Assembly: GCA_040285745.1 (NCBI GenBank) | Contig: JAUFOR010000008.1 | Location: 1,488,001-1,552,000, forward strand | Direction: 5' to 3' | Origin: Barthelona sp. PCE | Taxonomy: Eukaryota | DNA length: 64,000 nucleotides | In this document: positions 28,823 through 35,138 of the stretch, one piece after another | Layout of the letters: every line of letters begins with the position of its first letter | Numbering within the stretch: the first letter of the stretch is position 1 | Notes under the pieces: model-generated | What the model was told of the DNA's origin: nothing | What the model saw: only the letters and a program-made list of their open reading frames with translations | Database searches by the model: none | Translations under genes and position numbers: made by a program

Positions 28823-29626
28823 TTACAGAACGGCGCTAGCGTTCAGCTTCACACACATGTCCTCAAAGAGATCGATGATCTCATCCTCTGTTTTCTGCCT
28901 CAGCTGCTTTTCGTTACGTAAATCAGCCTGAAGGCGCATAAATACCTCACCGAGCATGTTGACAAGGTGTTCCTCGGTGCTCTCGCGGGCAAGACGCTCT
29001 TCATGGATGGCCATAGCAATCGCTCCAAGCCTTTCCTCCATCGCGTTGATTACGTGGCCTTCTGCCTCCTCACGCTCCAGTCTGATACTGCTAAGGAGCT
29101 CGTTGAGCCTTGGGATCTCAATTGCAAGGGTGGACCGAATAGATTCAATATTGTGCTGCCTAGTTCTGTTCTCATGACCGAGCTGGTTCTTGAGGTCCTC
29201 AATACGGGTTTCCATGAGTGCAAGGACGCTGTGTTCCATGGTGTCGTAACGGGAAATACAGTTCTGGAGGTGCTCACGTCCTTCTAACAATAAATTTTGA
29301 ACTTCTTCAAGCAAAAACGTCTGCATCTCATCCATTGACTGCTTCTCACCTGCAAGTATGTCTCCGAAGCGTTGAATCTTATCGCGCGCTCCTTCAAAAC
29401 GTTTTTGTTGCTCTGTGCTACGATTTACCATGTCGCTTTCAATAGTCTTTAGGCGCTCAAACAGGTTGTCCCTCTTTAGACGCTTTTTGTTATCGATATT
29501 GCCCTGCAAACTGGACAGCTTGTTTGTTAACATTGAAATTTTGCTTCTATTGGGACTTTGCCTGGTGCTGGTGAGAGATGCACGTGTTTCGGCTAGTGTA
29601 CCCATCTTTCTCGGTGTAGAATCCAT
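28823..29626 (-). CDS. SF-assemblin / beta-giardin family striated fibre protein
   Basis: Short S/T/P head plus ~240-aa coiled coil with ERLARESTEEHLVNML and EKQLRQKTEDEIIDLFEDMC; ATG at 29626. Confidence 0.8.
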   Translation of the reverse strand: MDSTPRKMGTLAETRASLTSTRQSPNRSKISMLTNKLSSLQGNIDNKKRLKRDNLFERLKTIESDMVNRSTEQQKRFEGARDKIQRFGDILAGEKQSMDEMQTFLLEEVQNLLLEGREHLQNCISRYDTMEHSVLALMETRIEDLKNQLGHENRTRQHNIESIRSTLAIEIPRLNELLSSIRLEREEAEGHVINAMEERLGAIAMAIHEERLARESTEEHLVNMLGEVFMRLQADLRNEKQLRQKTEDEIIDLFEDMCVKLNASAVL

Positions 29627-30151
29627 TATAACTGTTTGAAAAGGAGAGAAAAATTTAAACAAGCGAAACCCTCAAAATATAGTTTACATGAATAGTTATG
29701 CGTGATGCAATGTGCTATAGACCTCAAAAGAGCAATTAATACATGTTTGAGTTATAAACAACCTCAATACACAATTCCATGCTTTATTTTCACAACAGAT
29801 AAGAATAACGTTCTACAATGAGGCCTTTTTTTGAAAAAAGGCACGCCTTCAACAAAATTTTCTGAGTAGACCAAGCAATAAGGAAGCAGAATAAAAAAAA
29901 ACCGAGGAAACACCATAACTTACATTTAATTATTGTAATTTCACCTGAAAAACTAATTTTATGCATAGAAAAGTGCAAAATAATTTACAATCCTCAAAAA
30001 GTTATGCAGGTTCCAACACCTGAACTAACATTCTCTATAATATGAATTACAAGGAGTGATACGTCTTTAACTGTGGTATGATGAAGTTTGTTCACATATT
30101 TTGCACTTTGAAGAACCTGTTCTGCAAACATAACCTTTTTCAACTTCTACA

Positions 30152-32230: not shown

Positions 32231-32788
32231 ATTAATCAGATTATAAGGCGATACTCACATCATAAAGCACTACACGGTGCAAAACACAAAAACAAAGCAC
32301 CTTTTTACTATTTTTTCCGCTTCAAAAGGCCGTTCTTCGAGCACCTACCCTCCCTAGGTCCCCATATTTGATACTAAAACCACTCTAGCGGTTCACATCG
32401 TCGAAAAGCTTTTGGTGGGGTGTCCATTTGCTACGATTGTAGTAATGTCGCTACACAGAGGGATTGCCGGTATGCAATATTCAGTAGCATTTATTTTCAA
32501 GCAGTGCTTTTGAGTTATATACAGTACAGTAACTGTGTGTGCGTATATGATTAAGCTGTATAAATCAATTTAGGGGTTGTAAAATTTTTTGAAAAAAAAA
32601 TGTTAATTAGTAATTTTTAATCGATTTTGGGTCTCTACCGTTTGATCACAACACTATTTTCAGTATACTTAACCCCTAATTACGTGAGATGGGGGAGAAA
32701 ACTGACCGAAAATTGTGAATAACCAATACGATACTTGACACTTTGGCTCCAACATTTCCGTCTCAGAAGTCAAAATCGAGATATTGAG

Positions 32789-32861
32789 GCGCCTATAGCT
32801 CAGTTGGCAGAGCGTATGACTGAAGATCATAAGGTCCTAAGTTCAATTCTTGGTGGGCGCA
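32789..32861 (+). tRNA. tRNA-Phe (GAA)
   Basis: Cloverleaf: acceptor GCGCCTA/TGGGCGC, D arm GCTC..GAGC, anticodon stem TATGA/TCATA with loop CTGAAGA, T arm CTAAG-TTCAATT-CTTGG. No encoded CCA, no intron. Confidence 0.97.
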
Positions 32862-32866
32862 CCTCC

Positions 32867-32873
32867 TTTTTTT
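32867..32873 (+). terminator. RNA polymerase III oligo-T terminator
   Basis: T7 run starting 6 nt after the tRNA 3' end. Confidence 0.8.
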
Positions 32874-33051
32874 GTGGTTGTCATGCCTGTTTGCCTGCTT
32901 AACTTTGTTGGCTTTTTATCCATTTTCCGGTATCTGTTTCAGTCCAATTAGACACGCTTGCGAATAACACGCTATTTCGTAGAAGTAAATCTACCTGAGG
33001 ACGCGATCCTTCCTGAGTACTCCATTTCTTTCTCCCCTTTTCTTCAGTAAA

Positions 33052-33260
33052 CATGTTGAATGATGGAAGCATGTGGTTGACGGAACTCATGGGAGATTGA
33101 ATCTGTGAATAATGAATGTGCTGCGAAATACATCCCTTTCTTACATTCCGGATTTCTTTTTATTTGCTCGGGCAACAGGCAACGAAGAACTACGAAAAGC
33201 AATTAACAAGATGCCAGAAGAAAACAACGACATAACGAAGAGTTTAAATTTTTCAGATTT
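33052..33260 (+). mobile_element. 5' fragment of a related copy of the tyrosine-recombinase element
   Basis: 33052-33123 matches 33261-33332 (41 bp exact, 68/72 overall). A diverged leader follows, then an ORF start MPEENNDITKSLNFSDFM paralleling MSQTNIANNNEPKSLNFVEFM. Confidence 0.75.
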
Positions 33261-33401
33261 CATGTTGAATGATGGAAGCATGTGGTTGACGGAACTCATG
33301 GCAGAGTGAATCTGTGACTCATGAATGTGCTGTCCGAATTACGTCCTTTATCTTTAATTTTTAGTTCAAGAGCAACAGGTACTGAAGAACAACAAAGTAA
33401 C

Positions 33402-34493
33402 ATGAGTCAAACAAATATAGCAAACAATAACGAGCCAAAAAGTTTGAATTTTGTAGAGTTCATGGCAGCGAAGGACGTGCAATCCGTCACGAATGTAGTA
33501 TATTACACGGTCGGCTACGCAACGGCATGCTTTGACATTGACGAGAGGTTAGCAAGAATACCAAAATCTACCGATGAAGCGAATGCTATCTTGATGGCAT
33601 TAGTGGACACGGTGATCAGAGCGGCCACTGACAACACAACAGACTTAGATGAGCAACTTAAGTCACACTCTTTAAGAAAAATCGCAGATCGAATTTACAA
33701 CGGGCTGAGCGTGACAGGTGACCAGAAAGTGATGTTCGCGAAAACCAACATGAGATTTGTAATGAAGCACGATGGAATCGGAGTAGTGAATGACCCAATA
33801 GACGTGATCGATAACTTGATTGAGAGAGCGGGTAAGGGACAGACACAGGATGTCAAGATTAATACTACACTGAGAAGAAGACGTGAGGAAATCCCGACAA
33901 CCGCGAGATCCAGTGAGGGGCTGATGCAAATCGTCCAAGAGCTACAGAAGGATGAGGCAAGGATGTCTACCGGATATCCGTGCAACGAGGACCAAGTTAG
34001 ATGTATAATGGAGCAGGTCGCCAGGAGCGACAAACGTGAGCTACTCATATACTCACTAGGGAAGTTCGCAGCAACTCTGAGCGCCACAGCGGCCGTTGAG
34101 ACCGCTCACGAACTAGGATTGAACATGGAGAAAACCAACGAACTGATATGGGCCGCTGCCAACTTTGCACCAGAAGCAACAGCCTACAAAAAGGTAGTGT
34201 GGGAAGACGTACTTGCAGATGCAGCTTTTCACGCCGACTTGTATATCTCCCCGAAGCAGAAAGCTCCTGCGAGAGTGTACAACAACAAGAACCGTGGGAC
34301 GTACAAATCGAAGAAGAAGCGTAAGAAGATAAAAGCTGCATCTTCGAGGGATGATTGGGACAAAGTTCTCATATTCAATGACAGAGGTGGACTGCCGGCG
34401 CACGCGGAAGCTGATGCTATCATGCTCGACACTGTCCCAGACAGGTCAAAACTCAACGAGATGGTTGACGTGGCCCTGAATAAGATGCTATAA
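33402..34493 (+). CDS. Element ORF (putative Gag-like helical protein with basic tail, apparently fused to YR sequence)
   Basis: ATG at 33402; helical body, basic KSKKKRKKIK stretch; in frame with the HSLRSGG motif beyond its TAA. The Gag identity is inferred from position only. Confidence 0.5.
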   Translation: MSQTNIANNNEPKSLNFVEFMAAKDVQSVTNVVYYTVGYATACFDIDERLARIPKSTDEANAILMALVDTVIRAATDNTTDLDEQLKSHSLRKIADRIYNGLSVTGDQKVMFAKTNMRFVMKHDGIGVVNDPIDVIDNLIERAGKGQTQDVKINTTLRRRREEIPTTARSSEGLMQIVQELQKDEARMSTGYPCNEDQVRCIMEQVARSDKRELLIYSLGKFAATLSATAAVETAHELGLNMEKTNELIWAAANFAPEATAYKKVVWEDVLADAAFHADLYISPKQKAPARVYNNKNRGTYKSKKKRKKIKAASSRDDWDKVLIFNDRGGLPAHAEADAIMLDTVPDRSKLNEMVDVALNKML

Positions 34494-34726
34494 ACTCACG
34501 TTGAGAAAGAAGACGAGTTTACATTCACCCTACACTCGTTGAGATCGGGTGGTGTACTTCATGTTGAGAAAATCAGCAAAGATATGTCTTATTTCAAGAT
34601 GAAAGGTGGAGGAACGAAGCCACCTTCCAAGAATTCTGTAACCGATTACCTGCATTACGTGACAGACGAATCCAGACAGATGACATTTTGCTGAATAAGA
34701 CCGCGAGCTTCGTGGAATTCACTTAG
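34494..34726 (+). pseudogene. Degenerate tyrosine recombinase C-terminal catalytic region
   Basis: FTLHSLRSGG (HSLRSGG at 34533-34553), then in the -1 frame WRNEATFQEFCNR (W at 34607; Cys TGT 34637-34639 at the catalytic Tyr position); ends at TAG 34724-34726. Confidence 0.8.
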
Positions 34727-35138
34727 TGGGTGGGAACTCAATTACCCGACCTCAATCTTAGGAACTTATTCACGCCATTCAACTAGATATCTGTCAGTAA
34801 ACATGCATGGATCCGAGTGAACTCAGCCCCTGTGAAGTCAAAACTATGAGCAAAATCATTGGTTAATACTAAATAAAATTCTTGAAAAATAAAAAAATAA
34901 TCTTTCGTTCTTACATACATACTTAGCTAGTAACTGCACTCAATTTACCTTGTTCATTCACTATATTTAGGCTAGACTTCTGGTTTCAATATAATATCCC
35001 AAAAAACATGCAATAAATTTAACTAATTGTTAATGTGCTATTAAAAATTACATCATTTGTTAAATAAGAGCATCAATGTTCCATATGTGTAAAGCACGCA
35101 TGTGTATATTCATAAACACACCTTGGTATGTGTTTGTA

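Follow-up and report, generated by a model that had tools for sequence, protein, structure and literature searches.

A probable defective Ngaro-like retrotransposon in a pile of insertions behind a tRNA-Phe gene of Barthelona sp. PCE

Retrotransposons that carry a tyrosine recombinase (YR) fall into several classes, of which the Ngaro and PAT-like classes are taken here as defined in the accessible text of PMC4157794. The Ngaro element of Cafeteria burkhardae has the arrangement A1-ORFs-B1A2B2, with internal repeats behind the YR (PMC8547959, accessible text), and the five intact sister families described below are alike. Targeting of tRNA genes is known for TRE, Skipper-2, DGLT-A and Ty elements and not for DIRS-1, according to the accessible parts of two reports (PMC5006619, PMC5633606). 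In the literature searched, which did not reach most subscription papers, we found no description of tRNA-gene targeting by YR elements. The same literature gave no description of UGA readthrough in YR elements and no YR retrotransposon in metamonads, for which the supplements of PMC11316075 may hold repeat annotations.

We analysed a 64,000-nucleotide stretch of the Barthelona sp. PCE genome (contig JAUFOR010000008.1 of assembly GCA_040285745.1, positions 1,488,001 to 1,552,000; hereafter the window, with positions counted on its + strand). It contains a pile of insertions behind a tRNA-Phe gene, and within this pile the segment 33263-34840 is most probably a defective split-direct-repeat YR retrotransposon of the Ngaro-like type (Table 1). 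This long copy is without reverse transcriptase (RT) and RNase H and without an A2-B2 end. The piece at 33054-33262 is colinear with both long copies of the genome as far as the codons for N-F-S-D-F-M. Family F, also represented in the pile, is a dispersed repeat of 226 bp whose ends are fixed; it has a T/A tract in its middle and AGTAAA close to its end, occurs at no fewer than 28 loci and is often nested with solo repeats of YR families. The tRNA-Phe region has a near-identical duplicate at L052 (C3:1582855-1583595, corresponding to window 32577-33313; 99.4% over 514 bp), which shares the dyad discussed below and then runs into a different stack of short copies. Elsewhere in the window, a gene of the SF-assemblin/beta-giardin family lies at 28823-29662 on the - strand (E 2.6e-8).

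Table 1. Features of the insertion pile (window positions) and locations of the intact sister families.
Feature	Position	Strand	Remarks
tRNA-Phe(GAA) gene	32789..32863	+	Likely targeting landmark; 20/29 family sites lie behind a tRNA gene
Family F repeat, diverged 5' half, unrelated to the element, cut by a later insertion	32953..33043	+	73% to F positions 3-116
Left arm of the 'dyad'	33044..33053	+	10 bp identical to short-copy positions 194-203, inside B
Older sister copy, 5' piece (A repeat and first gag-like codons)	33054..33262	+	Ends N-F-S-D-F-M
Long copy with internal deletion (A1, gag-like ORF, recombinase-like tail, B1)	33263..34840	+	
A repeat, true left end, TGTTG start	33263..33352	+	90/90 identical to start of 240-bp short copy
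390-codon ORF, TAA at 34491-34493	33321..34493	+	Gag-like to about 34329, from there fused in frame with the recombinase-like remnant; probable start near 33402
Recombinase-like remnant, probable tyrosine recombinase C-terminus	34330..34694	+	G and Y downstream of H-S-L-R (34533-34544)
B repeat, true right end, finishes GAAGTCA	34728..34840	+	108/113 identical to short-copy end
TCAGTAAACATG 12-mer, 'right end' of the first-pass annotation	34794..34805	+	Internal to B; AGTAAA at 34796-34801
Sister family, L065	C3:956412-962524		
Sister family, L066	C8:777538-783623		
Sister family, L059			
Sister family, L062/L063/L064/L070/L071			
Sister family, L067/L069			

Other copies were sought in the organism's own genome assembly (10.2 Mb, 8 contigs). 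A search with the element gave 101 matches, among them a second long copy, L002, which matches at 71% over 1.07 kb and lacks its 3' part, and many copies of 240 bp. In the short copy, a T-rich spacer separates the first 90 from the last 113 bases of the element; the long copy shares these two termini with the short copy as A1 and B1 do with A2 and B2 in the sister families. In total, 54 left ends (TGTTG) and 46 right ends (GAAGTCA) are spread over 29 sites, where the family persists mainly as solo A-B copies. The B-to-A joint of this family, GAAGTCA/TGTTG (here and below the slash marks the joint), was found once, at C5:882/883, in a dimer of short units. A1...B1 is represented by the window copy and A2-B2 by the short copies; no complete B1A2B2 end of this family was seen. 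At L053 (C5:243113-245764), nine tandem 295-bp units of stacked short copies lie behind tRNA-Glu, and a single-unit duplicate of this array is found inverted at C5:238528-238811.

The first-pass annotation had delimited the element by a CATG-centred dyad, taken as the candidate recombination site of a circular form. This dyad, TCAGTAAACATGTTGAATGA, is present at 33044-33063, matches its own reverse complement at 16 of 20 positions, and is unique within the window when up to 3 mismatches are allowed. Such symmetry is uncommon, being reached by 1 of 267 CATG-centred 20-mers and by 39 of all 63,981 20-mers of the window. It is also correct that the first 12 bases, TCAGTAAACATG, recur at 34794-34805, and that TCAGATTTCATG occupies the inner junction at 33253-33264. 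The right end, placed by that annotation at 34805, lies further on: homology to other genomic copies continues to 34840/34841 and stops there. All 46 right ends identified by a genome pattern search finish GAAGTCA and are followed by 37 different 12-mers; the pattern itself contains GAAGTCA, and the alignments that stop at 34840 provide the independent test. Among the 28 loci examined, TCAGTAAACATG continues into a common 35-bp tail in 43 of its 46 occurrences, the others being the dyad, its C3 duplicate and one diverged copy. Because TCAGTAAACATG is internal and 35 bp short of the end, a circle closed at 34805, with the joint TCAGTAAACATGTTG, would lose this conserved tail.

A similar correction applies on the left, where the proposed starts at CATG are in fact starts at TG (33054 and 33263), the CA belonging to the flank. 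The bases preceding the 54 left ends are CA in 8 cases, TCA in 6 and TCAG-N4-CA in 3; half of the distinct left flanks (16/32) end in T, and distinct right flanks start with T in 22 of 37 cases and with TG in 3. TCAG-N4-CATG, which had been suggested as a preferred target, is accordingly limited to 3/54 left ends and two events, both at the window locus. Since the three cases (window 33054, its duplicate C3:1583332, and window 33263) represent that locus twice and its C3 duplicate once, the motif is private to them. Coding sequence of gag accounts for the TCAG at 33253, TCAGATTTCATG belonging to the codons for N-F-S-D-F-M, and the younger copy begins at TCA/TG of the older copy's coding sequence. 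Comparison of the flanks of other copies, the check put forward with the dyad proposal, shows that they end elsewhere and without CATG, a result named there as evidence against it; variable target-site duplications were named likewise, and the clean nestings showed no target-site duplication, which agrees with the proposal.

As an att site the dyad does not hold, as the true ends, when joined, give a 20-mer that is only 6/20 palindromic. The proposal of recombination at CATG survives in part: the real joint GAAGTCA/TGTTG has a central CATG, and it forms no dyad. Likewise, the most likely mechanism still involves a tyrosine recombinase that works on the junction of element end and element start, with a site, right end and target other than those first proposed. 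The underlying idea of a Crypton-like, YR-only DNA transposon that excises and integrates at TCAGTAAA-CATG-TTGAATGA draws on a dyad that is real and uncommon, on the HSLRSG motif, and on CATG at both left junctions of the window. We regard it as scarcely credible, given that the right end lies 35 bp further on in all copies, that the dyad is found only at the window locus and its segmental duplicate, that the ORF is mostly ORF1-like and not recombinase, and that the TCAG of the inner junction is coding sequence. The arrangement by which Crypton-like elements are defined, a single YR ORF with a short site closing into an inverted-arm att, was not found here.

Instead, the dyad is quite probably a by-product in which the fixed A start was joined to a 10-bp scrap of B at CA/TG. 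Its left arm is absent from the family F copies compared and is duplicated with its flank at C3:1583332; judged from its identity to B, it is probably a scrap from a nested or filler event, although chance is also possible. A head-to-head join of two element ends was considered as the source of the dyad and rejected, as family F has no such end.

A search of the genome for RT gave 24 matches, and the 15 stretches fetched contain five full-length YR families, one non-LTR family with a restriction-like endonuclease (RLE) and one telomerase. The non-LTR family (L058, L060, L061, L072) is young, carries RT, a CCHC finger and a restriction-like endonuclease motif, and clusters near contig ends; L068:4125-6866 is a telomerase reverse transcriptase (PF12009 over cut-off) and not a mobile element. 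The five YR families, which we term sisters, share the order A1, ORF1 (gag), TGA, pol, B1 A2 B2, with gag-TGA-pol in one frame. They are apparently intact and young, most having repeat pairs that are 100% identical. Their pol encodes an RT (PF00078 over cut-off) together with RNase H motifs and, at its C-terminus, a recombinase in which R, K, HxxR, GxW and Y are invariant; the profile of this recombinase matches Cre at E 2e-5. A stretch of 250-300 aa without an assigned domain lies between RNase H and YR. No Pfam methyltransferase match was obtained in the five pol ORFs or their parts, nor was a clear motif seen. The RT/RNase H region has 12 distant matches (21-28% identity), nearly all unnamed. 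The B1/A2 joints are TCA/TG, TCA/TG, TCA/TC, TAA/TG and TAA/GG, so that TCA/T is common to three sisters and the window family (TCA/TG). At the DNA level, BLAST detected no likeness between the short copy of the window family and those of four sisters, and a likeness of its B to the B of L065/L066 that had been noted by eye was unsupported by BLAST.

The ORF of the window copy is 55-56% identical to a 307-aa ORF of L002 up to residue 336. Beyond this point L002 has a TGA followed by an in-frame continuation of about 180 codons, and the tail of the window ORF contains H-S-L-R-S-G, with a Y further downstream, and is interrupted by the TAA at 34491. ORF1 of L002 thus ends in TGA and continues in frame, as it does in all five sisters. 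From this layout we read UGA readthrough. Splicing or separate initiation may operate at the gag-TGA-pol boundary instead; the public annotation bridges one sister case by a predicted gap and starts another later. Folding of the 90 nt after the gag TGA gave z values of -0.1 to -2.3, with no common structure. A host code in which TAA is read as an amino acid was ruled out, as 22 of 27 long ORFs of the window end in TAA, and the idea of an endogenised RNA-virus segment was abandoned when RT and YR were recognised in the sisters.

The window ORF had no Pfam match and, in a database search, no homolog outside its own genome, the only homolog, like two sister proteins, being labelled Barthelona sp. 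PCE; we infer its gag-like nature from its position within the element. When 684 sequences were scored with a profile of the five sister recombinases, the recombinase-like remnant ranked first, at a weak E of 0.012 with a decoy at 0.018. It has HxxR and the downstream Y, and the N-terminal R and K are absent. Searched against 1.84 billion representatives, the C-terminal part matched only itself; a PF00589 search of the genome gave 0 matches, missing the sisters' recombinases too. Neither an RT nor a complete YR of the window family was found in the assembly. The view that the window family is most likely a YR element draws jointly on its architecture, its B-to-A joint, the TGA layout and the recombinase motif.

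These observations suggest a course of events in which the intact form would have been A1 - gag - TGA - pol (RT, RNase H, YR) - B1 A2 B2, an order seen in the five sisters and presumed for the window family. Its RNA would be reverse transcribed and its ends joined B to A as GAAGTCA/TGTTG, and the YR would recombine this joint into the chromosome, 0-5 bp of identity with the core TCA/TG presumably being enough. The window copy would have lost most of pol and the A2-B2 end, and the 240-bp copies would be solo A2-B2 units. Target deletions and collapse between repeats would then account for the stacks of incomplete A starts and incomplete B ends.

Across copies, the ends are fixed and the flanks variable. 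For one sister the empty site is known, and ATCA, equal to its joint core, stands on both sides of the element; a joint core flanking both sides has been described as a signature of DIRS elements (PMC7192593, accessible text). We read 19 internal breakpoints, at which one copy meets the interior of another, manually from parsed copies, the dyad site included. They share a mean of 1.5 bp with the joint, versus 0.76 over all 224 positions (p about 0.005); breakpoints fall at both of the TCATG sites that the short copy contains, and 7 of the 19 have no base in common with the joint. Among ten two-sided nestings in the same known target, all families combined, 6 are clean and 4 lose 12, 25, 46 or 143 bp; many more nestings are one-sided, both window junctions among them. 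Plain conservative recombination predicts neither target loss nor one-sidedness. The pattern would be consistent with a YR whose core is short and lax and with later deletions or repeat collapse.

The same pattern could also arise if linear cDNA or RNA with fixed ends, of the same ancestry, were patched into breaks behind tRNA genes, each end independently. This might proceed by reverse-transcriptase template jumping or end-joining repair, possibly through the RLE non-LTR element, a family of which is present in the genome. Left and right stacks are mostly unmatched, and scraps of the element stand beside junctions (A starts of 7-12 bp, internal pieces of 10 bp at the window locus and L007, and 14 bp at L020); the target deletions at nestings fit such patching, and DIRS-1 cDNA is mostly linear and single-stranded according to the accessible text of PMC7192593. 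However, breakpoints recur at the two TCATG sites and, from both sides, at 84-86 and 170/171, 6/10 two-sided nestings are clean, there are no poly(A) tails, and 5'-truncated copies are few. We consider patching, by either of these routes, the main rival reading but an unlikely one, and favour recombination by the YR.

The family is associated with tRNA genes. A relaxed tRNA scan produced many false genes, and all counts rest on a set of 55 Rfam matches (from 63 candidates scored, a lower bound) and one ARAGORN gene. Of the 29 family sites, 20 begin behind a tRNA gene, at a distance of 21-408 bp and always on its strand, and 9 have no tRNA gene within 450 bp; viewed from the tRNA genes, 20 of 37 clusters have a family site. 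Two site pairs are duplicates, and after their removal 18/27 sites lie behind tRNA genes. In three control families (20, 13 and 26 sites, the last set obtained from 30 loci minus the window site, its duplicate and two repeats), 0/59 sites lie behind tRNA genes and 5/59 lie upstream (127-281 bp). The chance expectation is 0.12% per site, and the Fisher p is 3e-12. The tRNAs concerned are of many isotypes and lie at varying distances, and for this reason the tRNA is not part of the repeated unit. This link is an association among fixed copies, and not a measured insertion bias. A conserved module, possibly a Pol III upstream element, lies upstream of tRNA genes (window about 32600-32762; 75-88% over about 52 bp in L010, L028, L043, L049, L065 and L066), and the L067 element sits inside this module.

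We suggest that the family may be drawn to positions 20-400 bp behind tRNA genes in a fixed orientation, perhaps by tethering to the Pol III machinery, and that it may be attracted to earlier repeats there too, such that copies land in one another. Alternatively, copies might merely survive in the gene-free DNA behind tRNA genes, or the family might not be a YR family at all; it could, for instance, be a SINE-like unit that captured an ORF. The genome is gene-dense, 9 of the 29 sites are without a nearby tRNA gene, and the YR score is weak, all of which would suit these possibilities. Against them stand three other repeat families of like size that are never found there and occur upstream in 5/59 cases instead, an orientation that is fixed in 20/20, and a tRNA that is not part of the unit. 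We hold both to be very improbable, and retain targeting as the preferred reading.

The B repeat also appears to contain a candidate poly(A) signal. AGTAAA, TGTAAA or AATAAA occurs within the last 80 bases of 7/7 short repeats examined. Among 60 AT-rich ORF tails (3' ends of long ORFs in the window and loci), 17 have (A/T)GTAAA 1-60 nt after the stop codon versus 5.2 in shuffles, an enrichment reached in 0/500 shuffles; further downstream the count is 6/60. AGTAAA is the common poly(A) signal in Giardia (PMC3916229, accessible text). Given the repeat-wide motif, the enrichment after stop codons and the Giardia parallel, AGTAAA at 34796-34801 likely serves this role.

We give even chances to a broader view, in which these families represent a distinct YR retrotransposon lineage in a very compact metamonad genome, with an RT-RNase H-recombinase polyprotein made by readthrough of a single UGA after gag. 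One family would have evolved orientation-specific targeting to the DNA just behind tRNA genes, more than half of the tRNA clusters being hit, with a homology-tolerant recombinase that often deletes target DNA. If true, no earlier YR element would be known to target tRNA genes, and the copies would form a natural record of the products of YR integration; split-repeat YR integration has not been shown experimentally in the accessible parts of the literature covered. Dozens of near-identical copies nested in known repeats make joint cores, empty sites and deletion sizes testable. YR targeting would also raise the question of how a recombinase that should need sequence identity is steered, and the gag-UGA-pol layout in six families suggests retroviral-type readthrough control in the DIRS order.

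Among known systems, the element works like the Ngaro type. The split-repeat plan of Ngaro was found in five sisters; RT and RNase H are absent from the window copy, were not found for its family in the assembly, and are present in the sisters, which do not have the three-ORF plan. The element is not filed as a Ngaro member because RT is missing from its family, the ORF plan of the sisters differs and the absence of a methyltransferase is tentative. The Cafeteria Ngaro (PMC8547959, accessible text) has the order gag, RT/RNase H, YR, a length of about 6 kb and scattered solo AB repeats, and the elements here are alike; no methyltransferase was detected in it, nor in the pol ORFs of the sisters. 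It has three ORFs, whereas the sisters have two in one frame with a single TGA, and RT, RNase H and YR in one pol. The accessible portion of that report does not mention tRNA-gene association, which is present in the window family. PAT-like elements (Pat1, Toc, Kangaroo) combine split direct repeats with a methyltransferase (PMC4157794, accessible text); the sisters have the repeats, and a methyltransferase was not detected in them.

VIPER and SIRE of Trypanosoma cruzi offer a parallel for the short copies, as SIRE is a short, abundant repeat equal to the A2-B2 of VIPER, as here (PMC6681497, accessible text, for this and the following points). Whether SIRE is itself mobile or a remnant is an open question, which the short copies share. 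SIRE measures about 430 bp versus 240 bp for the short copy, and VIPER carries gag, YR and RT/RNase H in three ORFs; here the order differs, as the YR of the sisters is C-terminal to RT/RNase H and that of the window copy likewise comes last. DIRS-1 of Dictyostelium (PMC5006619, PMC7192593, PMC5633606, accessible parts) is a YR element that inserts into earlier copies and has its joint core on both sides, as here, but differs in having inverted repeats with an ICR, a methyltransferase domain and centromeric clusters. TRE3 and Skipper-2 of dictyostelids, like the family described here, inhabit a compact genome and insert downstream of tRNA genes, in their case at about 100 bp, but TRE3 is a non-LTR and Skipper-2 a Ty3/gypsy element, and they use an endonuclease or integrase and not a tyrosine recombinase (PMC5633606, PMC5006619, accessible parts). 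In compact genomes, targeting of tRNA genes has evolved repeatedly among integrase and non-LTR elements, and a YR case would add a third enzyme class.
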